Source: Candidatus Aenigmatarchaeota archaeon
Lineage (GTDB): Archaea; Aenigmatarchaeota; Aenigmatarchaeia; PWEA01; JACQIF01
DNA: 64,000 bases
Assembly: GCA_016432325.1 (NCBI GenBank)
Contig: CP066684.1
Coordinates: 384,001-448,000 of the forward strand
Direction: 5' to 3'
A program made the position numbers and the translations under genes. Under the pieces are notes generated by a model that was not told the DNA's origin, did not search any database, and saw nothing but the letters and a program-made list of their open reading frames with translations. Every line of letters starts with the position of its first letter. The stretch's first letter is position 1. Shown one piece after another: positions 429-64,000 of this stretch.

Positions 429-842
429 ATGGCTGAAGATTTGAGTAAGATTTCCGAACAGAATGTTCGGAATACTTCGAAAGAGGACCTTTCGAAGAAA
501 GCGCTTGAAGCGGTCGAACTTGCAAGGAGCACCGGTTCCCTCAGAAGGGGAACGAATGAAGTTACAAAGGCGGTAGAACGCGGACAAGCAGAACTGGTCG
601 TTATAGCAAAAGACACGGATCCGCCTGAAGTGGTCATGCACTTGCCGCCGCTCTGCGAGGAGAAGAACATTCCGTACGTTCACGTGCCTAACAAGGAAGA
701 GCTCGGACGCGCTTCTGGGATAGAAGTCAAGTGCGCCGCTATCGCAATAGCCAAGGCAGGCGAAGCGAAGAAACTGATAGACGAAATAAGAAAGGCGAAT
801 GGCATGGAGAGCAAATCGCCTAAGGAAAAAAAGAAAGAGTAA
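429..842 (+). CDS. rpl7ae: 50S ribosomal protein L7Ae with a 16-aa N-terminal insertion
   Basis: [38 protein letters not shown]; SD GGAGGTG. Confidence 0.97.
447..498 (+). repeat. Double-hairpin element, in frame within rpl7ae
   Basis: AAGATTTCCGAACA-GAA-TGTTCGGAATACTTCGAA-AGAGGACCT-TTCGAAGA; homologous to 9924-9978 and 10853-10918. Confidence 0.85.
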
Positions 843-24679: not shown

Positions 24680-25618
24680 ATGAAGTTCCGCGCTCTGGGC
24701 TCTACGGGTTTGAGCGTCAGCGAGATAGGAATGGGCTGCTGGGCCATAGGAGGCGACCAGTTCGGCAACTCGTACGGGCCCACGGACGACGACGTTTCGC
24801 TGGCCGCGATAAGGAAGGCCGTGGACATGGGAGTCGCGTTTTTCGACACAGCGGACGTGTACGGCCACGGACACAGCGAGGAGCTTCTCGGAAAGGCTCT
24901 CGCGAACGTGCGCGACCGCGTGTTCATAGCGACGAAGGTCGGCTACGATTTCTACCAGAAACGCGGCAAGGTTTTCGATGAAGAATACGTCCGCTTTGCT
25001 CTCGAACAGTCCCTCAAAAGGCTCGGCACGAACTACATCGACCTCTACCAGATGCACAACCCTTCGCTCGCAGAGGCGCAAAGCGAAAACGTCTGTGCGG
25101 TCTTCAGGGAGCTCAAGAAAGAAGGGCTGATACGCCACTGGGGCATTTCGATACACGACCCGAAAGAGGGCGTGATTGCAATCAAGACGACCAAGCCCGA
25201 AACGATTCAGGTCGCCTATAATATATTCAACCAGTCCGCGGCACAAGAGCTTTTCGCGGTTGCGAAAGAGAACGGGGTGGGAATCATAGCACGCGAGCCG
25301 CTGGCCAACGGCTTCCTGTCAGGCAAGTACGACGAGACGTCGACGTTCCAGCCCGGGGACGTGAGGAACGACGCGATTGCCAAAGACACGATCGTCACGT
25401 ACGTGCGCATGGCCCGCCGCGTCCATGAACTGCTCAACGAACGCAAAGAAACTCTTGCGCAGCTCGCGCTGAAGTTCGTACTGCAACACGACGCAGTTTC
25501 CGTGGCGATTCCTGGAGCGAAGACGCCAGAACAGGCCGAGGAAAATGCGATGGCCAGCGACGTAATGCCGCTGCAAACCGGCGAGCTGGCGCGGTTGCGT
25601 GGTCTCTATGCGGCGTAG
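24680..25618 (+). CDS. Aldo/keto reductase
   Basis: LGSTGLSVSEIGMG, FDTADVYG, ATK, IDLYQMH, PLANGFL, IPGAK. Confidence 0.95.
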   Translation: MKFRALGSTGLSVSEIGMGCWAIGGDQFGNSYGPTDDDVSLAAIRKAVDMGVAFFDTADVYGHGHSEELLGKALANVRDRVFIATKVGYDFYQKRGKVFDEEYVRFALEQSLKRLGTNYIDLYQMHNPSLAEAQSENVCAVFRELKKEGLIRHWGISIHDPKEGVIAIKTTKPETIQVAYNIFNQSAAQELFAVAKENGVGIIAREPLANGFLSGKYDETSTFQPGDVRNDAIAKDTIVTYVRMARRVHELLNERKETLAQLALKFVLQHDAVSVAIPGAKTPEQAEENAMASDVMPLQTGELARLRGLYAA

Positions 25619-39640: not shown

Positions 39641-40114
39641 ATGCGGCCCCAGAAGGGAATATCCCCGATTATAGCCGTGGTTCTGCTCATCGGCCTCACT
39701 GTGGCCTCCGCGGCCGTGCTGGTCAATTTCTACGCGCCCTTCCAGCAGGCCCGGCAGTCGGAGATAGAGCAGAAGGGTTCAACAGAAGCGGAATGCGCGT
39801 TCGCCTCCATAGAGTTCACGGACGACGACGTCGCGTCCAACCTCACGGCAAGCACGGACACCGTAAACGTCACCGTCGACAACACTGGAAGCGTGGACCT
39901 ATACGACTTCCAGATAACGGTAACGATAAGCAATATAGCCTACAGTTACGAACCCGACAACGTGACCAAGAGGACGGCCGCTGTGCCCATGAAACCGGGG
40001 GACAAGGTTGTGTTCGTGACTAACGTAACGGACAACCTGTCCGGAACGATAACGTCCGTGGAGGTCGTTGGCCGCAACTGCCCCAGAGCGGCGAGAAAGA
40101 AGGTTGACTTATGA
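39641..40114 (+). CDS. Archaellin/type IV pilin N-terminal domain protein
   Basis: KG|ISPIIAVVLLI. Confidence 0.92.
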   Translation: MRPQKGISPIIAVVLLIGLTVASAAVLVNFYAPFQQARQSEIEQKGSTEAECAFASIEFTDDDVASNLTASTDTVNVTVDNTGSVDLYDFQITVTISNIAYSYEPDNVTKRTAAVPMKPGDKVVFVTNVTDNLSGTITSVEVVGRNCPRAARKKVDL

Positions 40115-40668
40115 GCATGTACGAAATATGCGATTTCGACATTTTCAAATGTCGTTTGAAAAGTTCGTACGGCGGGCGTACGAACATACCGAAAGGCCGC
40201 GGCCTTTCGTGCAAAGGAGTGAGCCCGCTGATCGCGACCGTACTGCTGATAGCGTTCGCCATAGCCGCGGCCGGCATACTCGCCAACTTCGTCCTGCCGT
40301 TCACGCAGTCCACTGTGTCAGAAAGCACTTCGCGGGGCAGCAGCGACATCAGCTGTTCGTACGCCAACATCATCATAGACGAGGCCTCATGGAACTCCAC
40401 TTCGAACACGCTCTCTCTTACAATCGAAAACAACGGCCGTGAAACCCTGAAGAACTTCAAAGCCTCCATCGTCAGAACGAACAACACCGTATCGACCCTG
40501 ATACTCGCGCCGACAGGCGCGGAGATGCAGCCCGGAGACATAGAGACGTTCACAAACGCGACAAACGTGGCGCCCTGCAGCGACATCAGCTCGGTCACGG
40601 TGCGTTCGGACACGTGCCCGACAGACGCCCGCCACGAAATACAGAAGGCATCCATAACAAGCTGTTAG
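40111..40668 (+). CDS. Type IV pilin with palindrome-expanded leader
   Basis: KG|VSPLIATVLLIAFAI after a 36-aa leader. Confidence 0.9.
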   Translation: MSMYEICDFDIFKCRLKSSYGGRTNIPKGRGLSCKGVSPLIATVLLIAFAIAAAGILANFVLPFTQSTVSESTSRGSSDISCSYANIIIDEASWNSTSNTLSLTIENNGRETLKNFKASIVRTNNTVSTLILAPTGAEMQPGDIETFTNATNVAPCSDISSVTVRSDTCPTDARHEIQKASITSC

Positions 40669-50274: not shown

Positions 50275-53200
50275 TTACCCATCGGCGAGGGGGATGTCGC
50301 CTGTACGGGCCCGGCGGCCGGAGCCTATGCGCAGCGTGTGCGGCACCGAACCGCCGGCTTCCACGCCCACATTGCGGAAGCTGAACACCTCGAAAACGGC
50401 CTGAGCCGTGTCTGTCAGGGCATCCGTCGAGTTCACGAAGACGTCCATTATCCAGTCGCCTTCGTCAGGACCTTCGGGTATCGTGTAGTTGTATTCGTAC
50501 AGATAGCCATCTTCTCCTGACACGCTCACCTGCGAAATGTTCGTCATCTGGGATATGTTAACGAACTTCGTGCCGTTCACGGACGTTATGTTCAGGAACG
50601 CGCGGTCGATGAGGTTGCGCGTCGACGAATGCGTTATCTGGCTGCGTATCGTCACGACCTCCTGCTCTTCGAAGCTGACCTGGCCGACGAGCTGGTCGTT
50701 GTAGGTGTTCAGCGACTGGATGGTCAGCGTTACAGAGACGGCGCCCACAGTGAATGTTACTGTCGCGTTGCCTGAATTGCCGTCAAACGTAACCGTTGCG
50801 TTGGTTCTCCACGTTCCCGTGTCCGTCGTATCTGTGAAACGGAAGTCCGTCTCGTTGAAATAGCCTGTTGAGTTAGTGGTCGTGAAGACATGGTCGTGTT
50901 TGACGTACGAAGGCGTGGCGTTCTGCAGGCTCAACGTGATGTTGCGCGTTGAATTCTCCGCCTGCTCTGCGCCCAGAGCGAACGTCGGATCAGGGAACGT
51001 GTACGAACGCACGACGTAATCGTCGACCCATCCGTTGTAGAAGTTCGTGCCTGCGGCGCTGCCTATCGTGCGGTACTCTATCTTGTTCCAGGCATTCTCT
51101 ATGTCGCTGGCTGTCGCGCCCACAGAGGCGTTCTTCGTCGCCAGAAGGTCTCCCGTGTCGTTGTAGACGTAGAGCATTACATGCGTGGCGTTGAGCGAGG
51201 CTTCCAGATAGCCCTGGAAAGGCGAGTCGCGCGTGTCCGTCCCTGACACGGCTGACGCGCCCACGACGTCGTCATCATCCACCCTGCCTTCTACGTCGAC
51301 ATCAAGCGCGGCCTGCCTGCCCGTCGCGTGCGCGCGCAGCTTGTCCGGTACCGCATCCACGGACTCGACGAGACCGAAGAACGCTTCAATGTCCGCTGGA
51401 GTGAGGCCGCCGTTCGTTATGGTGCCGTTGAAGTGGAATCTTGTCGAGTTGCCGCTTACCGACGAGGACAGCGTCTGCTCGCGCACGAGCGGGGTCGCGA
51501 CAGGACATTCGTTTCCGGTCTGATTGAACTCTATCCGTTTGTCTGTGGAATTCCACCTTATGTACGAGTTGGTCGGGCTGCACGTGGCGGCCGGCGTCGC
51601 CAGCGAAGGGTCTGCGTCGTACGCGTCGTAGAACGCGAAGACGTTCGTGCCGTTGCTCTTCGATTCGGCGGCCGGATAACCGTAGTACATCGTCATCACG
51701 CGCGTAGAGGACGCGGGTATCGTAGGCATCTTGACCCAGATTTTCGTCGTCGTGCGGTTGGTCGTCGTTTCTATCCAGTACGACAGCTCTGCGCCGTCGG
51801 CATCCACGAACCTGACGTCAGAAGCGTTCGCGTTGAGCTTTCCGGCGCTCGTCAAACTCTGTGTGTTTATCGTCAGCTGTACGGGATGGTTCGTGCGCGC
51901 GACGGTGCTCCGGGCGTTCGATACGGTGATGTTTTGCCTGTACTCGAAACTGTGGTTCCACCAGAATGGGAACGTGAGGCTCGAAGCCGACGTGCCGTTG
52001 GCGAAGCGGACGCGAACGTCCATGCTTGTATTGGAAGGTACGCTGTATGGATCCACGTTGTTTGATATCGTTATCGTCAGTTCGTCCGTATACTTGAACG
52101 CGTTAGACGTCGTTTCGTCGAACGTGTTGCCTCCTGACCCCGTGGAGTTGATGGCCACGGTGCTCCAGTTGCCAAGCTGGTCGTCTGCGGCGAGAGTGTA
52201 CGACGTATGGTTCAGCCATCCGTTGTTGAACCCGACGAGCAGGTCGCTCTTCACTGTCGCCGAGGGGTCGCGTATGCGCACGCGGCCCGTTCCGGCGTTC
52301 ACGTACTGTCCCCGGCCGCCTGTCAGGCGGTAGTCTATCTGCGGACTGGGGCCGCCGCGATTGAAGACGTCCACGGGTATCGTGGTCGCGTTGACATAGT
52401 ACTGGCTGTCGATGTCCAGCACGTTCGTGGCGTTCGCGTCGTTGCCGTTCACGGCGCTGCTCGTGGTGCCTCCGTCATAGAAACGCGCGTCATACTGCCA
52501 GCTCTCGTTCAGGCCTGGCGTGTTGTTCGTGTATGTGTCGTTCGGGGCGCTTCCTGTGTTCACGTTCATAACGGCGCTGAAGCGGCCTGTCGTGGCGCTG
52601 ACAGAAGAAGTGTTCTCGAAGGCGCCGTTGCCGTAAGTGAAATTGAACAGCTGCACCGTCAGCGTTCTGGACGCATCGCCCGTCGGACTCTTGATTCTGT
52701 AGGTCCCGCCGTCCGAATGGAAGAGGATTGCCGTGATGTTTATGGTCTCGTTCTTGTTGTATATTTTCAGCGGCGTCCCGGTGGTCTCGCCGTAGATGTT
52801 GTTCTCCACGTTGGACGTGGCATTAAGGATTATCGTGTTGTTGACGACGAAGGTGGAGCCCGTCGCCTCTGCCATTGTATTGTTGAAATTGAAGGTCAGG
52901 TTTGCCGCTACCACGATGTGCTTGGCGGTCCATGTGCCCACGGCGTCTCCGTTGGGCGTTGTCCTGTCCCAGTTGATTGTCACGCCCGTATCGTTTCCCG
53001 TCGTCAGGTTCGTATTGTATTGCTCGGCGTTTGAAGGGTCATAGAGACGGACTGTCACGGAGGCGTTGATGCGCGGGGCATCATTGCGCGCGCCGACTAT
53101 CGTGGCGTTGATGCGATTGATGTCGCCCCTCATCACATCGCCAAAGAGCCTCGCGTCCGTGGAGTAGTACAGGGTGCTGTCGACGTCTACGTACGTGAAT

Positions 53201-54702
53201 GATGTCTGGTTTTCAATGTAGGCCCCCAACGCAGGATCCGTGGTGGTGTTCGGATAGTGTATGTGGAAAGCGTACTCTTTGCTCTCGTCCGTTCCGGGCG
53301 ATGCGCTTGCGTACGAATCCCCGCAGTCGTTTGCGATGCGGTCCGACCTGACGCCTGTGCCGCCGCTCGAGTTCAGGGCGACCGACGCGTTCAGCGTGCA
53401 GTGGCTCGTTGTAGTGTTCATCTCAACGCGCACGCTCCGCGCGCCAAGGCCCCTTCCCCAGGCGTCGCCGAGAATGAAGCTGTATTCCAGCGGCTCTCCC
53501 CTGTTGAGGGTCTTGTTGAGAACCGTAACCACATTTCTTGCCCTCGGCATTCCGGCGTCCATCACGAGCGTCAGGGTCTTCTCTACCCAGAAAGCGGCGG
53601 CCCTGACAGGCGAGCCGCCGGGCGCCAGGTCGGTCTGTATCGGCACCTCGCTCGCCGTCTGATTGACGAATCCCACGCCTGTGGAGGAGAAGTTCGTCCA
53701 CGACTCCCCGAGAAGCCTCGAGTTCGTCGAAAGATTCAGCGTCACGTTGTAGTCCTGCAGCGCCGCCGATTCAGGCATCGCCCAGAACACGCGGAACGAC
53801 TTGTTCGTGGAGTTTACGGCCAACGGCGACCTGAAGACCTCATGACTCGTCCTGTTGTAAACCAGAAGCGTCATGTTGGCCGGCGCGGCGGACCAGTTGG
53901 CGTTGCCTGTCGGAATGCTCGCGTTGGCGCTCAGGTTGAACTCCATATACACCCTGTCGCCGAGGACGAACTTCTTTTCCGCGGCCAGAAACGTGCTGTT
54001 GGCTGTCAGCAATGACGTCACATTGGCCCTTGCCTTTATCCAACCGACCGTCTGTTTGGACTTCTCAAACTGGCAGTCCGCACCCGGCACCAGACCGAAC
54101 GACGTGTCTGTCTGGTCCGAATCGCCGTGCCAGTCTTCGGCTTCTATGGCGCCGCTGGTGGAGACGACCATCACTGCCATGCGGAACGTGCCCGTATGGT
54201 TCAGGCCCGTTATCCACGCGCTTGTGGAACCCGTCCTGTTCCATGCGTTTATTTTGCCGAGGTCCGCCGTCCCGCTCACAAAATCCGTTCCCGTCCCGAC
54301 AGTAATCTGGGTCCTGTTGTACGCGTAGAAGGTGCCTGTCTTGGGGACTCGCCACCACGTACCGACCGTATCCTTCCACTGACTGCTCATGTTTACGTCG
54401 TCCCACAGGAGGGCAGACGTCACGTAAAGGTTTCTCGTCGTCGCGGACTGTTCAATGTTGTAGGACAGGTTGAAATCCGGATTGTCGTTAGCGTTCCAGT
54501 CGCTCTGTCCGTCGTCCTGTATGAACCTTACCTGAGCCTCGAAACCGCAGGCTGCCAGTATGTTCGAGACGTTCGCTGTCGCGTTCGCGGGCACCGCCGT
54601 GACTCCGTTATACGTAGCGGCCGACACGTCATGCGCAAGCATGATAAAAACGAAAGAAACGACGACGACCGCCAAGATAGAACGTCCGGAACCCATTTCC
54701 AC
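50275..54702 (-). CDS. Giant secreted surface protein C: related scaffold with a DUF2341-like insert
   Basis: GTFRM, FVLGDRVY, WTNFS, AFWVE, DSY...PG; WWNHSFEYRQNITV...DVRF...LSYWIE...IWVK...MYYG. Confidence 0.88.
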   Translation of the reverse strand: MEMGSGRSILAVVVVSFVFIMLAHDVSAATYNGVTAVPANATANVSNILAACGFEAQVRFIQDDGQSDWNANDNPDFNLSYNIEQSATTRNLYVTSALLWDDVNMSSQWKDTVGTWWRVPKTGTFYAYNRTQITVGTGTDFVSGTADLGKINAWNRTGSTSAWITGLNHTGTFRMAVMVVSTSGAIEAEDWHGDSDQTDTSFGLVPGADCQFEKSKQTVGWIKARANVTSLLTANSTFLAAEKKFVLGDRVYMEFNLSANASIPTGNANWSAAPANMTLLVYNRTSHEVFRSPLAVNSTNKSFRVFWAMPESAALQDYNVTLNLSTNSRLLGESWTNFSSTGVGFVNQTASEVPIQTDLAPGGSPVRAAAFWVEKTLTLVMDAGMPRARNVVTVLNKTLNRGEPLEYSFILGDAWGRGLGARSVRVEMNTTTSHCTLNASVALNSSGGTGVRSDRIANDCGDSYASASPGTDESKEYAFHIHYPNTTTDPALGAYIENQTSFTYVDVDSTLYYSTDARLFGDVMRGDINRINATIVGARNDAPRINASVTVRLYDPSNAEQYNTNLTTGNDTGVTINWDRTTPNGDAVGTWTAKHIVVAANLTFNFNNTMAEATGSTFVVNNTIILNATSNVENNIYGETTGTPLKIYNKNETINITAILFHSDGGTYRIKSPTGDASRTLTVQLFNFTYGNGAFENTSSVSATTGRFSAVMNVNTGSAPNDTYTNNTPGLNESWQYDARFYDGGTTSSAVNGNDANATNVLDIDSQYYVNATTIPVDVFNRGGPSPQIDYRLTGGRGQYVNAGTGRVRIRDPSATVKSDLLVGFNNGWLNHTSYTLAADDQLGNWSTVAINSTGSGGNTFDETTSNAFKYTDELTITISNNVDPYSVPSNTSMDVRVRFANGTSASSLTFPFWWNHSFEYRQNITVSNARSTVARTNHPVQLTINTQSLTSAGKLNANASDVRFVDADGAELSYWIETTTNRTTTKIWVKMPTIPASSTRVMTMYYGYPAAESKSNGTNVFAFYDAYDADPSLATPAATCSPTNSYIRWNSTDKRIEFNQTGNECPVATPLVREQTLSSSVSGNSTRFHFNGTITNGGLTPADIEAFFGLVESVDAVPDKLRAHATGRQAALDVDVEGRVDDDDVVGASAVSGTDTRDSPFQGYLEASLNATHVMLYVYNDTGDLLATKNASVGATASDIENAWNKIEYRTIGSAAGTNFYNGWVDDYVVRSYTFPDPTFALGAEQAENSTRNITLSLQNATPSYVKHDHVFTTTNSTGYFNETDFRFTDTTDTGTWRTNATVTFDGNSGNATVTFTVGAVSVTLTIQSLNTYNDQLVGQVSFEEQEVVTIRSQITHSSTRNLIDRAFLNITSVNGTKFVNISQMTNISQVSVSGEDGYLYEYNYTIPEGPDEGDWIMDVFVNSTDALTDTAQAVFEVFSFRNVGVEAGGSVPHTLRIGSGRRARTGDIPLADG

Positions 54703-55323: not shown

Positions 55324-56133
55324 TCAGCTCTTGGGAATATCCTTGGTCTTCGCCATGACGGTCGTGTTCACCCAGATTTTCTCCACGGGGTCCACGCGCA
55401 GCGACGAATTGAAGCCGAAGACGCGGCCAACCGTTATGTTCACCGTGTTAGCCGAGCCTGTGAAGTTTATCATGTAGACGCTCGTTCCGGTGCGGGAAAC
55501 GGAGCTTGTGAATGTGCGGTTCAGGACCGATATGTGCAGGGTCATGTTTCCGGACGTTTCGGATATCGTGGATATGTTGGCCGCGGAAACGCCTGACGTG
55601 AGCGGCACCACAAAGACCTCATAACGGGTGATGAAGTTCGCGCTCGTATCCTTCTGGAGAACGCTTATGTTGTTCTTCGCAAAGTCCGAATAGTTGTAGG
55701 CGGCGTTCATGCCTGTTATCGTGAAAAACGACTGGTTGGCCGGAACGCTCGCATTGAAATCCAGCGCGTATGAAAGGTTCATCTGGTCGGCCAGGAAATC
55801 GCGGTAGGCCTTGAACGACACGTTATAAGGCTGGACGCGCGGCGCCTTGTCGGTGAAGTTCACGAACGTATGGGTTCGATTGGCCGTGACGCGAACGCCG
55901 ACATCCGCGAGCTTTTGCACGTGCGAGCCCGCGTAGAGGAACGCCTGCGGGATGCCGATGTCCTCGCTTGTGGCGAGTTCGAGGTCGCTGGCAAAGACCC
56001 TGTAGTTGGTCAGAAGCGAAACAAGCGAGACGGCTATGAGGACGGACATCAATGTGAAAACGATTCCCTTTGCGACGTTTTCAGTCTTCCCTCTTCTTCG
56101 GGAAGGCGTAAAGACTATTCCGCGCCGGCTCAC
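55324..56133 (-). CDS. Pilin-like protein with duplicated cleavage motif
   Basis: RG|IVFT...KG|IVFTL. Confidence 0.82.
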   Translation of the reverse strand: MSRRGIVFTPSRRRGKTENVAKGIVFTLMSVLIAVSLVSLLTNYRVFASDLELATSEDIGIPQAFLYAGSHVQKLADVGVRVTANRTHTFVNFTDKAPRVQPYNVSFKAYRDFLADQMNLSYALDFNASVPANQSFFTITGMNAAYNYSDFAKNNISVLQKDTSANFITRYEVFVVPLTSGVSAANISTISETSGNMTLHISVLNRTFTSSVSRTGTSVYMINFTGSANTVNITVGRVFGFNSSLRVDPVEKIWVNTTVMAKTKDIPKS

Positions 56134-56621
56134 AAGGACACCCCGAGACGGACCTTGGCTATGGCCGTCATGTTCTTCACCTGCGACGACGCGGATTCGT
56201 TGACCATTATGGGAACGGGCCTGGACGCGTATACCGCGTCCCTTTCCTCCGGTATCATATTGACCGTCAACGTGCGGTCGAACGTGAGCCCGCCGGTGGG
56301 CGTTACGTTGAAATAGTCCACGATGAACGCATAGCGGACAAACGACGGCAGCGTCTGGTTCACAGTGGCGTTTATCGCGTCCGCGTTCCTCGAGTCGAAC
56401 GCGCCTCTCTCCTCCATCACGGCCAGCGTGTCGATGGACATGCGTTCGAGGACGGCCTCGCTTCTCGACGGCTGTTCGACGGTGAAGGAGAACGACAGGA
56501 TTGCAAAGGCTATTATGGCCGCGCCGATGAGCGAATCGACTGTGAAGACAAAGCCCTTTGTGCTGTTTTCAAGCTTCCCGCGCTGCGCTTGTGAAGCAGT
56601 AAAAACAAAGTTTTTGTCCAT
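56130..56621 (-). CDS. Pilin-like protein with duplicated leader motif
   Basis: KNFVFT...KG|FVFTVD. Confidence 0.85.
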   Translation of the reverse strand: MDKNFVFTASQAQRGKLENSTKGFVFTVDSLIGAAIIAFAILSFSFTVEQPSRSEAVLERMSIDTLAVMEERGAFDSRNADAINATVNQTLPSFVRYAFIVDYFNVTPTGGLTFDRTLTVNMIPEERDAVYASRPVPIMVNESASSQVKNMTAIAKVRLGVSL

Positions 56622-56622
56622 G

Positions 56623-57249
56623 TCATGGCCTCCACAGCGTCACGCGCAGAGTGCAGTTGCGCGAATTCTCCGTCATCACGTAGCGGTCTATTGAAATCTG
56701 TTCCTTGGCGCCCGCCGGCTGGGCGCCTACTGTCAGGTTCGTGGACTGGACCGTGCAGTTGGAGCCGCCGCTTGTCAGCAGCTGCACGTAAAGGCTGTTT
56801 GGTCCTGTCGAGAGGTTGCCGCGCAGGTCTTTGGCCGTCATCCGCGTCAGCGCGATGAGCTTGTCATCCGCAAGGCGATGGTCTCCGTATGCCAATCCCA
56901 CGCTCTTGATATTCGTCGAGTTGTACCAGCCGTCGGGCTCTCCTGACGTAAGAACGAGCTGGTCGCTAAGCCCGATGAGCCTGTCCTGCGTTCTCCTGAA
57001 CTCCTCGGAGTCTGCCACGGAATGGGATATGGAAGACTCCGCGTGCAGGACGCCCGCTATCGATATCGTGAATATGACAAGCGCCAACACGACGTCCAGA
57101 GAGACGGCCTGTCCCTTTCCCGACAGAAGGAGGGAAAACTGAAACCGCGTTTCAGATTTTCCTGCCCCAAGGGCGGGAAAATCGTTCGCACGCGGCGAGG
57201 CCGCGGCCCCGCCGTCTTCAGCACGTCTGCACATTCGTACCGTCCGCAT
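56623..57249 (-). CDS. Pilin-like protein with palindrome-expanded leader
   Basis: KG|QAVSLD; TSGEPDGW. Confidence 0.82.
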   Translation of the reverse strand: MRTVRMCRRAEDGGAAASPRANDFPALGAGKSETRFQFSLLLSGKGQAVSLDVVLALVIFTISIAGVLHAESSISHSVADSEEFRRTQDRLIGLSDQLVLTSGEPDGWYNSTNIKSVGLAYGDHRLADDKLIALTRMTAKDLRGNLSTGPNSLYVQLLTSGGSNCTVQSTNLTVGAQPAGAKEQISIDRYVMTENSRNCTLRVTLWRP

Positions 57250-57796
57250 TCCAGCACTTCACCTCTATATTGTCACCCGTGTTGTTGACGTTCACGAGCG
57301 CCGTTCTCAGATCCGCGTCCTTTACCTTCGCCGTTATCAGTCTCGCCGATATTATAAGGGTCTCGTTCCTCGGCCCCGGCCACGTCATCTCCACCTTGCG
57401 ATATTTGCCGAGAACCTTGAACGTGGTCGCGTTCTGCACTCCCGCCCGGGCGGCTACCGTGATGTTCGTCTGGAAGCCCTTGCCGCCTATGGCCGCGGCG
57501 TCGATGGCGCCGGACACCTTCTCCACCTCGCGCTGCGCCGCAAACTGCTGGCGCGCCTTTTCGACGTTCAGGTTGCGTTCGTTGAGGGAAAATAATATGA
57601 TTGAAGCGAGAACAAGGACGATGCCTGCCACGACCATGAACTCGATCCCTGTTTGCGCCTTTCCCGTGCACGAGAAGCTTCGCTTCTCGGCATGTTCGGC
57701 CTTCGGGCCGAACTTTTCGGACCGAGTCCGAAAATGTCGGGACCTGTGGGTCCCGTACACCCGCAGGAGGGAAACCGTTTTCACATTCAATACCAT
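57218..57796 (-). CDS. Pilin-like protein with palindrome-expanded leader
   Basis: KA|QTGIEF. Confidence 0.82.
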   Translation of the reverse strand: MVLNVKTVSLLRVYGTHRSRHFRTRSEKFGPKAEHAEKRSFSCTGKAQTGIEFMVVAGIVLVLASIILFSLNERNLNVEKARQQFAAQREVEKVSGAIDAAAIGGKGFQTNITVAARAGVQNATTFKVLGKYRKVEMTWPGPRNETLIISARLITAKVKDADLRTALVNVNNTGDNIEVKCWNADGTNVQTC

Positions 57797-57800
57797 TAAA

Positions 57801-58262
57801 TTACCCCGCAGACGGCCTGAGGCTCTGCACCTCAAGCGTATAGTTCATGGCAACAGAGCCTCCCGAACCGCCCTGGCTGACTCCCCTGAAAACGTACGTG
57901 CCTGCCGCGCCGGGCAGCGTCCCCGTAACGTTGCAGGCAGTCGTCGCCGTCACCGCGCTTTCCGCGTCCTTCGACGTCAGTATCAGCTTTATCGTCCTGT
58001 TGCCTATAGAGCTGGCCATCAGGTTAACCTCCCGCGGAATGTAGACGTCCCTGCGCGACGTCGTGTTTTTCGGCGCCGTGCACAGGAAATTCGCCATGTC
58101 CGCAAGCTCGTTCGCGGCCACGCGCGCCTCTGCGACGCGCAGCGAGGCTGTCTGGTTCGCGAATAGGTTCAGGGAAGTCGCGAGCACCACGACCAGCGCC
58201 GCCGTCAGGAAGACCGCTAGCATCATATACTCTACGGACGTCTGGCCGGCGCGCGACTCCAT
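57801..58262 (-). CDS. Class III signal peptide pilin (QxSxE type)
   Basis: RAG|QTSVEY. Confidence 0.85.
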   Translation of the reverse strand: MESRAGQTSVEYMMLAVFLTAALVVVLATSLNLFANQTASLRVAEARVAANELADMANFLCTAPKNTTSRRDVYIPREVNLMASSIGNRTIKLILTSKDAESAVTATTACNVTGTLPGAAGTYVFRGVSQGGSGGSVAMNYTLEVQSLRPSAG

Positions 58263-58300
58263 GTGCTAGATTGGAGGGCCTCATATAAAACCGCCCGGCC

Positions 58301-58711
58301 TCATTTGGCCGTTATGTTCACGGCCGTCGCTTCACGTTCGACCTCGAACGCGTAAGTACCGCCTACCGACGGCAGGCTGCCGTTGAGTTCGCATCTCGAC
58401 GTGGCCGACACGAACTCGAGCCTGTCCTTGTAGCGCAGGGCGAACGCGACTGTCCTGTTGGCGACGGAACTGTTCATTGGGTCAATGTGAAGCGGTACGG
58501 GAAGCAGTACCTCTGTCTTCGAACCTTGCGGCTGAAGGCATATCTCGTTGGCCGCGTCAGTGAGCGACGTAACGGTAAGCCGGGCCTGGCTCAGCGAGCC
58601 CTCAAAGGAGCGGCCGCCCATGAAGTCTGCGGATATGAAGAACAGCACCGTGAAGAGCAGCGCGCCGATGAGGGAGATGGAAATATATTCTATCGCGGCT
58701 TGCGCTTTCAT
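58301..58711 (-). CDS. Class III signal peptide pilin
   Basis: MKA|QAAIEY; paralog of 57801. Confidence 0.85.
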   Translation of the reverse strand: MKAQAAIEYISISLIGALLFTVLFFISADFMGGRSFEGSLSQARLTVTSLTDAANEICLQPQGSKTEVLLPVPLHIDPMNSSVANRTVAFALRYKDRLEFVSATSRCELNGSLPSVGGTYAFEVEREATAVNITAK

Positions 58712-58750
58712 GACCAATCTAAGGCCGTCCCCGTATAAAACGGCCCGTCA

Positions 58751-59371
58751 TCAGTCCGTCTGGGCTCTGGCCTTGAGTGTCGTCGACGGCGCATAGATGA
58801 CGTTCGTCTCGGTATCGGTGTAGTTGAATGTCAGCTTTACGGAGTAGATGCCTCCTATGCTCTTGGTTATGCCGTGAAGCGTCGTGTTTATGGGCAGGAC
58901 CCGCGTCGCCGTCTCTCCGGGGAACAGTGTTGCAGGCGTAACGTTCGTCACCAGTTGCGTCAGCGTGGACTTGTCTATTTCTGTTACGTTAATCGAATTG
59001 AGCGTTATCTTGTTGGCGCCGTTGTTTTGGACCACCACGGTGAACGTATCGTTGACGTTGTCCCCGCCCGTAACGCCCCATTTGTGGCCGATGACTGCCA
59101 GCTGTTCGAACTGTTGCGAAAGCGACGAACCCGAGCTTGACAAGGAGAATCCTATATCGCCTATGTTGAGGCTGAAGATGGCCACGCCCACGATAACCAC
59201 TATGGCGATGGCCCACGCGTAGTTCATGAGATACTCGATGGCGGCCTGTCCGCGCCTGTTCCCCGACGGTATCTCAACACCACGCCTGCTGGCGCGGTTC
59301 ATTAGATACTCGATGGCGGCCTGTCCGCGCCTTTGCATTTGCCGTATTGGTTTTCCTGCCGTCCTTTTCAT
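58751..59371 (-). CDS. Pilin with tandemly duplicated signal-peptide motif (start 59371 or 59386)
   Basis: RRG|QAAIEYLMN present twice, then YAWAIAIV. Confidence 0.87.
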   Translation of the reverse strand: MKRTAGKPIRQMQRRGQAAIEYLMNRASRRGVEIPSGNRRGQAAIEYLMNYAWAIAIVVIVGVAIFSLNIGDIGFSLSSSGSSLSQQFEQLAVIGHKWGVTGGDNVNDTFTVVVQNNGANKITLNSINVTEIDKSTLTQLVTNVTPATLFPGETATRVLPINTTLHGITKSIGGIYSVKLTFNYTDTETNVIYAPSTTLKARAQTD

Positions 59372-59412
59372 AGTAGCCGTCAACATTTCAGAAGAACAGA
59401 ATAAAAAGACGC

Positions 59413-59943
59413 TCAGCCTGCCTGCACCGTGCCCGTGAAGTTCCTCGAAGGTTTGAATGTCAGGCCGCTCACGTCGTCTATGTACGATACGGTTACTTGT
59501 ATCTCGTACGACTGGCCTACGTTTCCGCATCTGATGCCCCTGCCGCCTGTGGACGTGTTCCTGCATATCTGAGTCTGCCCTGGGAATATGTCAGGCGTAC
59601 CTGTGCAGTCCGTGAGGACCGTCGAGCTCTCGTTGCTGGCGTTAAGGTAGATGTCCTTTATCTGCCCGGCGCCGTTGTTCTGCACGGAAACGGAGAAACG
59701 ACCTTCGCTGTCGCACAGGTAGCCCACGACCGCGAGCTGTTCGCCTGCCTGCGTTATCTGGGAAGACTGCGACGTCAGGGAGTTGCGGATGCCTCCTATA
59801 TTGAGCTGGAAGATGGCGATGCCGACGATGATTATGAGAGCTATGGCCCACGCGTAGTTCATTAGGTATTCGATGGCAGACTGTCCCTTCGGGGAGGGAC
59901 GCCTGTTGTCGTGGGGTTTGTTGGCAGAACGCATACTCTTCAT
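59413..59943 (-). CDS. Class III signal peptide pilin
   Basis: KG|QSAIEYLMNYAWAI. Confidence 0.88.
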   Translation of the reverse strand: MKSMRSANKPHDNRRPSPKGQSAIEYLMNYAWAIALIIIVGIAIFQLNIGGIRNSLTSQSSQITQAGEQLAVVGYLCDSEGRFSVSVQNNGAGQIKDIYLNASNESSTVLTDCTGTPDIFPGQTQICRNTSTGGRGIRCGNVGQSYEIQVTVSYIDDVSGLTFKPSRNFTGTVQAG

Positions 59944-61007: not shown

Positions 61008-61282
61008 GCGACATCGGCCTGCTTCTGGGTCTTTTCGGGATTGCCGTGGGCCTCGGAGCCATAGCGGTGCTTTTCTTCAACGCCGACCGTGCCCTGCCCG
61101 CGTACAGGAGGATTAACGAACTGTTTTCCATCGTACTTCTGTCGATGCTTGTTGGCGCGTCTAGCCTTCTCCTTGGATTCCTGCTCTCTATTGAAACCTA
61201 CCCGGATGCGATAGCCGTCGTCTCGCAGATGGCCGGCGCTGCCGTCATCATATACGCCGTCAGGAACGCGGAGGCGCGCTAA
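61004..61282 (+). CDS. Small 3-TM membrane protein
   Basis: Hydrophobic; ATGA-coupled. Confidence 0.65.
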   Translation: MSDIGLLLGLFGIAVGLGAIAVLFFNADRALPAYRRINELFSIVLLSMLVGASSLLLGFLLSIETYPDAIAVVSQMAGAAVIIYAVRNAEAR

Positions 61283-62223
61283 GCGCTGAGTCCAACCAGC
61301 CCGGCGATGAGGCCTTTCGCCACGAAAAAGACCGCGAAAGACGTGGCCAGGAAAAAGGGCACGAACTTCAGCCCGACGCGCATGCTGCCGTCCTTGACTA
61401 TCCCTATTCCGAGAGACGTGAAGAAGCTCGTTATCGCTATGGCGGCGAGGAAGAAGTTTCTGAGCATATCTGCCGGAGGAACCGATGTGGAAAAAGACAG
61501 CAGGCCGAGAGGCGAGCCCCCTGTTCCCTGCGCAGAGGCGACGGCGAATATCTCGCCGCTTGCCTCGACAAGATAAGACGAAAGAGCGAACAGCAGAGGA
61601 GACGCCACGAGAGCCGCGAAGCCCAGGAAAAGCGTGTATGTTGTTGTCGATGCGCGTATGTCGCGCGTTATGTTCCGCATGTCGTTGATGTTGCGCGCCA
61701 TTGCCGTGCATACTGTGTCGACGTTGACCCCGCTTTCGACGCTGCGGCACAGCGTTTCGATCGTCTTCGCATAGAGCTGCGATTCCACACGCGCGCGCGT
61801 GGCGCGCAACGCGTCCACCATCGAGACGCCGGTGTTCATCTCTATGACGGCCGTCGACATCTCGACACCGAGCTGCCCGAACTCGTCTGTCATCAGGAGC
61901 TGCATGGAGTCTTTTATCGGCAGTCCGGCCTTCACGTTGGACGCCAGCAGTTCGAGCGCGTCTGTCAGCGAATCCTCTACCTCCCGCGCCTTTGCGTAAG
62001 CCATGTAATCGAGAGCGAACACCGTGCCAACGAATATTATCACAAACGCCAAAACGGCGCCCGCGGCTGTCACCAGCACGCTCTGCGTTATGAAGAACAG
62101 CGACAGCGCCGCGGCGGCGCTCAGGGGCAGGGCCATCTTGACCTGCAGTTTCATCCACTCCGCGGGCTTAATGCGGAGAGACGTCTTCTCCAGCCTGCTC
62201 CTGACATAACTCTCGTAACTCAA
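61279..62223 (-). CDS. Type IV pilus platform protein (TadB/TadC-like)
   Basis: LTDALELLASNVKAG, EFGQLG, GIGIVKDG. Confidence 0.9.
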   Translation of the reverse strand: MSYESYVRSRLEKTSLRIKPAEWMKLQVKMALPLSAAAALSLFFITQSVLVTAAGAVLAFVIIFVGTVFALDYMAYAKAREVEDSLTDALELLASNVKAGLPIKDSMQLLMTDEFGQLGVEMSTAVIEMNTGVSMVDALRATRARVESQLYAKTIETLCRSVESGVNVDTVCTAMARNINDMRNITRDIRASTTTYTLFLGFAALVASPLLFALSSYLVEASGEIFAVASAQGTGGSPLGLLSFSTSVPPADMLRNFFLAAIAITSFFTSLGIGIVKDGSMRVGLKFVPFFLATSFAVFFVAKGLIAGLVGLSA

Positions 62224-62226
62224 GCG

Positions 62227-63099
62227 CTACACCTCCACAAGCGGCCTCCTGCTCCTCAGGAAGCCGATGGCCGACGCGTGGAACATCAGAAGGAAGAACG
62301 TCAGCATGTAGACGAGCGACTCCGTTATCGCCAGCCCTGTGAAAGTGGACAGCATGACCATGAGCGTCAGCCCCATCGAAGGAAGAACGATTCCCACCAT
62401 CAGGTAGAGCGTGGCCCAGAGATTTATCTCCTGGCCGTACGCCTTTACCTGGGCCTTCGTCTCTTCTGTCAGGTTCTCTATGACGACGGAGAGAAGCGTC
62501 GGTATGTCAGCGCCGCTCCTTATTCCGTTGAAGATTCTCAGCATCGCCGACTTGTATAGCTTGCTCGTGTTCTTGCGCATGCTGCGTTCCATGGCGTCCT
62601 CCAGCGGCGTGCCGATTCTTATGTCCTTGACGATTTCATTCATCTCTTCAGAAAGGTGGCCGTAGCCTTCCGTGAGGAGATCGAGGGAGTCGACGAACGA
62701 CATTCCCGCGTCGAGTTCGACCGATATGTCGCGAAGCGCGAAGAGCAGTTCGCGGTCGATGAGTTGCGCGCGCTTGTGCGCCTGTACCTTCGGGAAGCTC
62801 ATCCAGTACAGCAGCGTCACCGCGCCCATCGACAGGCCTGCGATGAGGGAGAACCCGAAAAACTGCAGGGCCTGGCCGGCAAAAATGGCCAGGGAAAATA
62901 CGGTCAGGAACGCCAGGGAGCCCATAAGGACCGCGTTGGCCAGTCCCAGCGTCGCATACTCATCGGCCGTTTCTTCGGCGTGTATCGCGTCGAGATAATA
63001 TTTCAGGGAGGGGCTGAGCTGAACCATCGCCGCCGCAGGTCCCCTGAAAAACCGCCGTGTGAACGGCAGCGTCTTGCGTATCGGAAACGGAGGGATCAT
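62227..63099 (-). CDS. Type IV pilus platform protein (TadC-like)
   Basis: IDRELLFALRD, GYGHLSEE, GTPLEDAM, SGAD. Confidence 0.9.
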   Translation of the reverse strand: MIPPFPIRKTLPFTRRFFRGPAAAMVQLSPSLKYYLDAIHAEETADEYATLGLANAVLMGSLAFLTVFSLAIFAGQALQFFGFSLIAGLSMGAVTLLYWMSFPKVQAHKRAQLIDRELLFALRDISVELDAGMSFVDSLDLLTEGYGHLSEEMNEIVKDIRIGTPLEDAMERSMRKNTSKLYKSAMLRIFNGIRSGADIPTLLSVVIENLTEETKAQVKAYGQEINLWATLYLMVGIVLPSMGLTLMVMLSTFTGLAITESLVYMLTFFLLMFHASAIGFLRSRRPLVEV

Positions 63100-63145: not shown

Positions 63146-64000
63146 TCAGACACCTTCAGCGCCGCGGTCTCCTTCAGGAGGCTTGCCCCTGCTCATCGCC
63201 CCGAGCAGGTCCTCCTTGTCCGTGTAGTACGCGTTTATGACCTTCGACACCTCTTCGATGCTCCTGACATTCTCCGCGAGCATCCAGTTGAGTATGCGCG
63301 TCTTCTCTTCAAGGTCCTGATCCATCTCCTGCCTGGTCATGCCGCTGAAGAAGAGCAGCTCTTCGACGAGGCGGGCGCTCTCTCCCACCCGTTCAAGAGC
63401 GTCCTTGCGCGCGTTCCACCTGAAGAGGGTGTTTGCCTTGACGTCGACGCGTTCAAACGAGTCGCCGGTGGATGTGATCTCGGCCACCTCAAGGGTGCGC
63501 CTGAAGCCCAGCCGCTTCTGCCTGTACTGGACGAGCGCCAGATGCATGGAAGCCATCATCGTCTTCGGCACGTTGATTGGCGGGTTCAGGAGACGGCGGA
63601 AGATGCCGTCGATGCGCGTGGCGTGGAGCGTTGAGTACGTCGAATGTCCTGTGTCCGAAGCCTCGAACAGGGTCTGCGCCTCCTGCGAGGTGCGGACTTC
63701 TCCCAGAACGATGCGATCCGGGCGCATGCGCATGGCGCTCAGCATCAGGTCGAGCACGGTTATCTGGTCCGCCTTTTCCCCGACCGACGCGCGCGTCGTA
63801 AGCGGTATCCAGTGCAGCGTCTCCGGAAGGTTCAATTCGCGCGCGTCCTCTATGGATATTATCCGCTGCTCCGGAGGGACGAACAGGAGAACGGCGTTGA
63901 GAAGCGACGTCTTCCCCGAGGCCGTGCCGCCTGCTATGAGCATGTTGAGCTCGTACTGCACAGACGTCCACAGAAGCGCGGCCACCTCGGGCGAGAGCGT
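63146..64000 (-). CDS. CpaF/VirB11-family pilus assembly ATPase (5' part outside the window)
   Basis: GGTASGKTS, SIEDAREL, RMRPDRIVLGEVR, TGH, TLHA. Confidence 0.93.
   Translation of the reverse strand, partial: TLSPEVAALLWTSVQYELNMLIAGGTASGKTSLLNAVLLFVPPEQRIISIEDARELNLPETLHWIPLTTRASVGEKADQITVLDLMLSAMRMRPDRIVLGEVRTSQEAQTLFEASDTGHSTYSTLHATRIDGIFRRLLNPPINVPKTMMASMHLALVQYRQKRLGFRRTLEVAEITSTGDSFERVDVKANTLFRWNARKDALERVGESARLVEELLFFSGMTRQEMDQDLEEKTRILNWMLAENVRSIEEVSKVINAYYTDKEDLLGAMSRGKPPEGDRGAEGV

Follow-up and report, generated by a model that had tools for sequence, protein, structure and literature searches.

The stretch of DNA analysed here (the window) is 64,000 nucleotides long, covers bases 384001-448000 of a single 874,869-base contig, 55.9% G+C, and holds eight pilin-like genes (A-H, numbered from the downstream end of the row) that lie head to tail on the minus strand at 55324-59943. 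In four consecutive genes of this row, A-D, the leader in front of the prepilin cut site carries an in-frame, hairpin-bearing insert. We consider it probable, with appreciable doubt, that hairpin cassettes have been added at the cut-site DNA, are translated as part of the leader and are discarded by the prepilin peptidase, which would make pilin N-termini a sanctuary for such DNA and one of few sites in coding sequence where it can last. This reading is built on the presence and absence of the inserts between species, on their architecture, on their open frame and on their enrichment in pilin-like genes. No paper on hairpin inserts in prepilin leaders or in Aenigmarchaeota was found in the literature.

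Long leaders and the architecture of the inserts

Genes A (55324..56133; 269 aa; cut site AKG|IVFTLM), B (56130..56621; 163 aa; TKG|FVFTVD), C (56623..57249; 208 aa; GKG|QAVSLD) and D (57218..57796; 192 aa from ATG 57796; GKA|QTGIEF) are all pilin-like and on the minus strand. The GTG start of A overlaps the stop codon of B (GTGA), and C starts, after GAGGTGA, at an ATG (57249) within the 3′ end of D. Leader length was counted from the start codon whose ribosome-binding site is kept in the sister species, a same-genus genome (G001, 90 contigs) in which gene order is kept. The leaders measure 23 aa in A (MSRRGIVFTPSRRRGKTENVAKG|IVFTLM), 23 aa in B (MDKNFVFTASQAQRGKLENSTKG|FVFTVD), 46 aa in C (ending ...SGKG|QAVSLD) and 47 aa in D (ending ...TGKA|QTGIEF), in agreement with the original prediction, made from the sequence of the window, that four consecutive pilins have leaders of 20-50 aa. 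That prediction had started D at TTG 57835, a codon inside gene E; the D start at MVLNVK is also used in database gene calls (P0011).

Relatives of the four genes have short leaders, 3-12 aa apart from one D relative with 20 aa. Leaders of the A family are 4-8 aa in three metagenome-assembly relatives, those of the C family 3-12 aa, and those of the D family 4, 7 and 20 aa (these metagenome-assembly relatives, from Logan, were compared as proteins). For B, 42 homologues (E up to 0.001) were recovered from 1.8 billion representatives; among the 39 homologues listed the leader is mostly 3-6 aa, as in MAKG|F, and most matches start at residue 2-4. Inheritance of long leaders was rejected because the leaders of relatives are short, and the same long leader, which the original prediction had named as evidence against itself, was found only in the sister's copy of the A insert. 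Long hydrophilic leaders that end in Gly or Ala and are removed by a dedicated prepilin peptidase also occur in type IVb and Flp prepilins (6-26 aa, about 15-30 aa in type IVb; PMC4471445). There they are inherent to the family, whereas the leaders of 23-47 aa seen here are lineage-specific additions to a normal 3-12 aa, and two of them (C and D) exceed the range quoted in PMC4471445.

Comparison with the sister species, in which the junctions of B, C and D were read by hand, shows filled and empty sites in orthologous genes. The sister genes have leaders without the insert in B (MDRG|FVFT), in C (MDRISCSAKG|Q) and in D, where M(TV)MQKG, reading ATG CAA AAA GGA|CAG, stands in the place that the D insert would occupy. 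Sister A has the same insert as the window together with a further block of 24-30 nt (a 24-nt gap by alignment) containing a TTCGAAC hairpin, and the peptide encoded by the A insert differs freely between the two species. Gene F has the short leader MVMKA|Q in the window, while its sister orthologue (L002:535-1002) has a leader of 20 aa (MPTLLMHAGNRFPALTTGKG|Q) with the hairpins GGAAAC-AG-GTTTCC and TTTCCCG-N9-CGGGAAA, an insertion in the other lineage. The mature parts of the A, C and D families differ by indels of 1-4 residues only. Inserts thus come and go in the eight pilin genes in both lineages.

In A and B the insert is bounded by two copies of the codons around the cut site. Copy 1 of A (56107..56121, minus) reads GGA ATA GTC TTT ACG, encoding G IVFT, and copy 2 (56053..56067, minus), which adjoins the hydrophobic helix and is presumed to be the working cut site, reads GGA ATC GTT TTC ACA. 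Between them lies a sense cassette (56069..56110, minus) of the family that we call R1, defined by a CTTCCC-loop-GGGAAG hairpin with a (C/T)TGAAA(A)C tail and described by a covariance model from nine aligned copies. The A cassette, a seed of that model, matches it with 35.5 bits (E=4.9e-6); it consists of the hairpin CTTCCC-GAAGAAGA-GGGAAG and the tail TGAAAACG, reads PSRRRGKTEN in the gene frame, and its tail is the reverse complement of CGTTTTCA in copy 2. The B region (56541..56612), with 57 nt extra relative to the sister, has the same order on the minus strand: copy 1 (56598-56612, AAC TTT GTT TTT ACT), an R1 cassette in sense (56557-56601) and copy 2 (56541-56555, GGC TTT GTC TTC ACA). 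The copies recur with a period of 54 in A and 57 in B, and the 4 differences between them in A, like the 3 within FVFT in B, are all synonymous and at third positions. Were differences placed at random, third-position-only patterns would have odds of 5/1365 (A) and 4/220 (B), two values that are not fully independent since A and B are paralogues. The duplicated cleavage motifs with silent changes that had been described from the sequence are accordingly present in both genes.

A pilin-like gene outside the window (genome 711816-712277, here gene 711816; MLKSKNTNKSG|QFF[MTYRPRRGKFEKLHKSGQFF]IIST) has what looks like a recent insertion, the youngest of the set. Its R1-type cassette of 40 nt is flanked by a perfect 20-nt direct repeat, AAATCCGGCCAGTTTTTCAT, so that KSGQFF is spelled twice, and the site is empty in the sister orthologue. 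A and B share this layout, with older, diverged repeats. The cassette tails TGAAAAACT (gene 711816), TGAAAACG (A) and TGAAAACA (B) are exact reverse complements of each gene's own post-cut-site codons, namely AGTTTTTCA (gene 711816), CGTTTTCA (A) and the ancestral TGTTTTCA (B); for this reason the tail is taken to be target-derived and not a fixed part of the element. The repeats place the landing sites of the cassettes in A, B and gene 711816 within the mature protein, 3-4 codons past the cut.

The insert of C (57118..57219, minus; 34 codons, E11-G44) is absent from the sister and from P0007, P0009 and P0010, and consists of a GC-rich stem followed by an inverted doublet of R1 units, C1 in sense (57140-57185) and C2 in antisense (57111-57154), joined by CTGAAAC-GCG-GTTTCAG. 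The insert of D (57662..57778, minus; 39 codons, T7-G45) has an outer hairpin, TTTCCCTCCT...GGGAAAGG, that resembles unit C2 and is antisense to the gene, TTTCCCTCCT being common to C and D. Within it is nested a second element (57665..57761, plus), a GTGCAC...GTACAC doublet with four perfect hairpins of 7-9 bp (57671-57755). The antisense units (C2, the D outer hairpin and the sister F insert) sit directly before the K(-2) codon and all read xCG GGA AAR GGN CAR; the antisense hairpin arm GGGAAAGG spells G-K-G.

The inverted match between the leaders of A and C that had been noticed by eye is real. Positions 56077-56106 (plus) and 57114-57145 (minus) share TTCCCGA-AGAA-GAGGGAAGACTGAAAACG / TTCCCGACAGAAGGAGGGAAAACTGAAACCG with a score of 38, compared with 15.3±2.2 and a maximum of 25 in 500 dinucleotide shuffles, which rejects chance as its source; in the same orientation the score is 14. 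Together with R1 units in sense and antisense, this match upholds the claim that one element occurs in both orientations. The leader regions of A and B align in the same orientation (score 33 versus 14.1±2.3). An inverted match between A and D (score 28, p = 0.006 before correction for 12 comparisons) was treated as weak because the MVLNVK start of D is common to the relative P0012. The original prediction had called the leaders landing pads for the elements in both orientations; the two orientations stand, while landing in the leader itself does not hold for A, B and gene 711816, where the cassette lies past the cut site.

Open frames and enrichment in pilin-like genes

Each insert lies downstream of a ribosome-binding site and start codon that are kept in both species: GGGGTG..GTG in A, GGAGG..ATG in B, GAGGTGA..ATG in C, and GGGGT or GGGTGA..ATG in D. 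Between insert and cut site no ATG, GTG or TTG is present in A-D, with the exception of a GTG at the far end of the D nested element, a start that would still include all four hairpins. The start codon next to the cut site that the original prediction had named as a way for it to fail was therefore not found among canonical starts. All four inserts have a length that is a multiple of three and are free of stops in the gene frame. For intergenic segments that are centred on a hairpin and 57, 108 and 141 nt long, the probability that a given frame is open is 0.63, 0.35 and 0.25, and the joint chance of four open in-frame inserts, including the 1-in-3 length requirement, is ~4e-4. A filter that lets only translatable inserts survive would leave this pattern. 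Given the open frames and the conserved ribosome-binding sites, the inserts are most likely translated and then removed, with removal inferred by analogy with class III signal peptides, whose leader a dedicated peptidase takes off (PMC4471445).

We also weighed whether the inserts never enter the protein, by way of an unusual downstream start codon, a ribosome hop from copy 1 to copy 2, or splicing, and regard this as very improbable. Two matching codon strings at a distance of 54-60 nt, separated by a hairpin, do look like take-off and landing sites (PMC5009743), and in the database call P0001 gene A begins with a Met downstream of the cut site. Ribosomes are known to skip short coding-sequence inserts in T4 gene 60 and in the yeast mitochondrial 'byp' elements (PMC5009743), and the likeness extends to short hairpin-prone blocks with matching codons on their flanks. 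Those inserts break the frame and are skipped, whereas the pilin inserts are open and in frame, so that ordinary translation is enough; an interrupted frame or a stop after the insert, as bypass inserts have, was not seen. Open frames would be unnecessary in skipped DNA, and since neither splicing nor ribosome hopping would need one, their openness argues against both. In addition, no stop follows the take-off codon, all homologues keep the KG|IVFTL that precedes P0001's Met, canonical starts are missing near the cut sites, and the predicted D fold lacks the bulge-helix-bulge shape (no systematic scan for that motif was made). Pseudogenes were rejected on the grounds that the open reading frames are full-length and 51-69% identical to their orthologues. 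The database protein P0001 itself (241 aa) loses the conserved KG|IVFTL by starting at that Met, and its start is likely a mis-annotation caused by the A insert.

Enrichment of such leaders in pilin genes, a comparison that the original prediction had called for, was found across 497 gene pairs between the window genome and the sister (median identity 62%); the pilin set and the gene calls are heuristic, and the numbers approximate. Translated N-terminal extras of at least 12 aa that a downstream start could not avoid occur in 5 of ~25 pilin-like pairs (5/25) and in 6/472 others (Fisher's exact test, p = 8e-5). The five pilin-like pairs are B, C, D, the window gene at 40111-40668 and a small gene at genome 111381, while of the six other genes only one, for an L7Ae-like protein, has a hairpin-rich extra. 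N-terminal repeats of at least 5 aa at a spacing of 13-20 residues were found in seven called genes, three of them pilin-like, and G adds a fourth. A cruder test, which counted perfect hairpins within -30..+150 of the longest-ORF (open reading frame) start, gave 7/67 versus 74/895 (p = 0.5); it was dropped because its lenient pilin regular expression admitted many non-pilins and A and B have no perfect 7-bp hairpin.

Several of these genes can be described further. The window gene at 40111-40668 (plus) encodes a pilin (KG|VSPLIATVLL) whose leader, 21 aa or longer, contains a hairpin array (40137-40209), and the sister has a leader of 3-6 aa (VKG by the nearest start, MKSVKG from ATG). In the L7Ae-like gene (window 429-842, plus; N-terminus MAEDLSK...KALEAV), EDLSK occurs twice at a distance of 48 nt, and two perfect hairpins (452-497) lie between the copies; codons of the gene itself make up one hairpin arm, and the insert would stay in the protein. 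Two pilin genes (genome 546652-547830 and 703230-703925) have hairpin clusters in their 5′ parts, one of them with KGISP twice, and an in-frame Met or Val near the cut site makes translation of the insert optional in both. Repeats of five residues at the N-terminus are also present in the non-pilin genes at genome 22913-24406 (minus) and 856485-857159 (plus), as FVKSR (17 aa spacing) and FEVVT (20 aa spacing), and may be further cassette insertions.

The mechanism that we propose would start with the addition, at cut-site DNA, of hairpin cassettes of 30-45 nt, which may be single, paired as inverted doublets or placed one inside another. In the sense type (A, B and gene 711816) the cassette would land 3-4 codons past the cut site with a target duplication of 15-20 nt, its tail being an inverted copy of the target's own GTTTTC codons; the duplication would rebuild an intact K-G|xVFT site beside the membrane helix, and the old N-terminus and the cassette would become leader. 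In the antisense type (C2, the D outer hairpin and sister F) the hairpin would be placed directly before the K(-2) codon. As the start codon stays upstream, only stop-free inserts with a length that is a multiple of three would survive, as extra leader, and the prepilin peptidase would remove everything upstream of the downstream cut site and leave the mature pilin unchanged. Cassettes would arrive at pilin N-termini as they do at other gene ends and be tolerated and accumulate there; tolerance is all that the sequence comparisons would seem to support. More tentatively, and on balance doubtfully, the cassettes might be an undescribed transposase-free archaeal micro-element whose insertion inverts part of the target and duplicates 15-36 nt, regenerating the interrupted gene end or cut site, in which case prepilin cut sites (the K-G codons AAAGG plus GTTTTC) would be preferred through microhomology and not merely tolerated.

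Hairpin cassettes across the genome and rival accounts

Perfect hairpins are overrepresented in this genome, with 607 having a stem of at least 7 bp compared to ~300 in shuffles, and 105 having a stem of at least 9 bp compared to ~19 implied by shuffles. They are densest between genes (2.1 per kb), and inside genes their density is at background level (0.22 per kb). The motif TTCCC-N4-14-GGGAA occurs 25 times in the genome versus 4-6 times in shuffles. The R1 model matched A and B (sense), C1 (sense), C2 (antisense), five intergenic seed sites, one new intergenic site at genome 398261 and gene 711816. Copies of the D nested element are found at genome 664151-664200 (94% over 50 nt) and 24718-24745 (100% over 28 nt), and RTGYAC-hairpin-GRCAT modules number 25 at 18 places, mostly as inverted pairs whose stems vary freely and stay complementary. 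Duplication lengths are ~3-4 nt in C and D, 15 in A and B, 20-22 in gene 711816 and 36 in G. One R1 cassette (genome 71548-71640) lies between a stop codon and the start of the next gene, is flanked by the 10-nt direct repeat AGTTCAAAAG and carries GGTGAGGAT-ATG, a ribosome-binding site with a start codon.

Some of these results, and some of those above, weigh against the reading that cassettes are added to pilin leaders and then cut off. Most strong R1 matches are the model's own seeds, with few members beyond them, and for that reason the family is considered small; it emerged from the pattern search and the covariance model only, and a blastn-short search found no significant match to the A, B and C inserts elsewhere in the genome. 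The D nested element is the only one with near-identical dispersed copies. No match to Y1 (PF01797) or OrfB-type (PF07282) transposases was found in the genome, other transposase families not having been searched, and cassette mobility is consequently left with no known agent. Cleavage at the downstream site is extrapolated from class III signal peptides in general (PMC4471445). Both the pilin set and the gene calls are heuristic, and the events counted may include gene conversion between paralogues; those from A to B and from C to D may be copying between paralogous leaders rather than fresh landings. The nucleotides of copy 1 in A, ATA GTC TTT ACG, are identical in the sister, and copy 1 keeps its amino acids through four synonymous differences from copy 2, which a purely neutral leader would not predict. 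Predicted folds of the inserts of B (z = -1.3) and A (z = +0.35) are no more stable than shuffled sequence.

A rival account of the origin, to which we give a rather low probability, is that the inserts are not mobile and were made by local fold-back or template-switch errors (duplication - inverted copy - duplication), followed by gene conversion between pilin leaders. Tails that are exact inverted copies of their own target codons in A, B and gene 711816 are what such errors would leave, as are direct target duplications of variable length (15, 15 and 20-22 nt, and 36 nt in G). The likeness of A to B and of C to D, the lack of significant BLAST copies for the A, B and C inserts, and the lack of Y1 and OrfB matches also fit this account. 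However, the CTTCCC..GGGAAG hairpin recurs with its loop and flank at unrelated intergenic sites, and pieces of the D nested element are 94-100% identical 200-400 kb away; synthesis on the spot accounts for neither, and the dispersed pieces fit mobility better. The account moreover concerns origin only, and the consequence for the pilins would be unchanged.

Another account, which we think quite unlikely, is that the hairpins are kept because they are useful, the RNA structure or the long leader setting translation rate, mRNA stability or cleavage kinetics and through these the ratio of minor to major pilins. In its favor, the inserts of D (-67.3 kcal/mol, z = -5.24, with 0/200 shuffles as stable) and C (z = -2.65) fold better than shuffled sequence, and in these two genes, though not in A and B, the leaders are built from palindromes as originally described. 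Inserts are also found in A-D, the larger and probably minor subunits, the leaders of E, F and H being short, and copies 1 and 2 of A are nucleotide-conserved between the species. Against usefulness, the absence of the B, C and D inserts from the sister and the presence of one in its F gene point to turnover and not to a conserved device, the peptide of the A insert changes freely between species, and the same cassettes are present in intergenic DNA and in a ribosomal protein gene. Addition of cassettes followed by removal of the leader is still the reading we prefer.

Among the known systems closest in the way they work are the Rickettsia palindromic elements (RPE), which are in-frame palindromic inserts in coding genes (PMC10969869). 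Both are short palindromic repeats that are in frame, translated and tolerated where the protein can bear them, and both have no transposase of their own. RPE are ~150 bp long, form sequence-conserved families with a conserved encoded peptide, are bacterial and stay in the mature protein, whereas the units here are archaeal, measure 30-45 nt, vary in their stems, come with long duplications of the target and an arm derived from it, and give a product that is presumably cut off. The pilin inserts are not claimed as members of the RPE, from which size and host set them apart. REP/REPIN elements are hairpin doublets with RAYT transposases (PMC3116915), and like them the cassettes are small hairpins that occur singly, as inverted doublets (C and the D nested element) and in arrays, with a conserved scaffold and compensated stems. 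REPINs lie outside genes and need a RAYT gene of the Y1 type; the copies here lie in open reading frames, and the genome gave no PF01797/Y1_Tnp match. Compared with miniature inverted-repeat transposable elements, the cassettes have terminal inverted repeats (GTGCAC...GTACAC in the D nested element, and the R1 units being hairpins themselves), while a short target duplication of fixed length and a parent transposase or insertion sequence were not found, the duplications being variable and Y1_Tnp and OrfB without a match.

The filament locus and what the inserts would mean

The locus is one for a type IV filament, with genes A-H coding for its subunits. On the far side of gene H, separated from it by three small plus-strand genes, are two T2SSF (TadB/TadC-type) platform genes (61279..63099, minus) and a T2SSE-type secretion ATPase gene (63146..64000, minus) of which the window holds the C-terminal part only; a Peptidase_A24 prepilin peptidase gene is located outside the locus at genome 151095-151436. 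The genome therefore has the peptidase, the assembly ATPase and the platform protein that a pilin family requires. Pfam pilin-like DUFs match A-E below threshold only (B weakly DUF7262, C weakly DUF7287), and for this reason the genes are classed as pilins by their N-terminal motif, by how well it is conserved and by the genes around them. The class III pattern, a short charged leader ending in Gly or Ala and then ~20 hydrophobic residues, was found, and the cut-site motifs KG|IVFTLMSVLIAV, KG|FVFTVDSLIGAAII, KG|QAVSLDVVLALVIF and KA|QTGIEFMVVAGIVLVL are conserved across homologues; those of A (P0002-P0005) keep KG|IVFTLMSV.

The other four genes of the row are also on the minus strand. E (57801..58262), with the short leader MESRAG|QTSVEY, serves as an insert-free internal control, and F (58301..58717) is the pilin whose insert was found in the sister. 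In the pilin gene G (58751..59566), whose start position is uncertain, the RRGQAAIEYLMN motif is written twice 75 nt apart, and its repeat belongs to family D2 (41 nt, 93%). H (59413..59943) is a pilin with PKG|QSAIEYLMNYAW. Directly after the pilin row, a gene at 50275-54702 (minus) encodes a 1475-aa protein with DUF2341 and MG2 domains and abundant N-x-S/T sequons, probably a glycosylated surface or tip protein of the filament. Rfam gave no match in 55800-59700. The nearest database proteins come from a metagenome-assembled genome labelled Candidatus Aenigmarchaeota at NCBI, and the host would be a small DPANN archaeon, one of the Aenigmarchaeota if judged by the name given as the source of the sister-species proteins.

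If the reading is correct, selfish or error-born DNA persists in essential coding sequence at a place where the cell discards the product, and a cleaved prepilin leader illustrates such a place well. The reading predicts that prepilin leaders can reach 47 residues, which exceeds the range of 6-26 quoted for characterised systems. The filled and empty sites, including the perfect 20-nt repeat, would be datable material for working out how hairpin cassettes arise in a genome that gave no Y1 or OrfB transposase match. For annotators they are a warning that automatic gene calls can mis-start such genes, as in the database entry for gene A.

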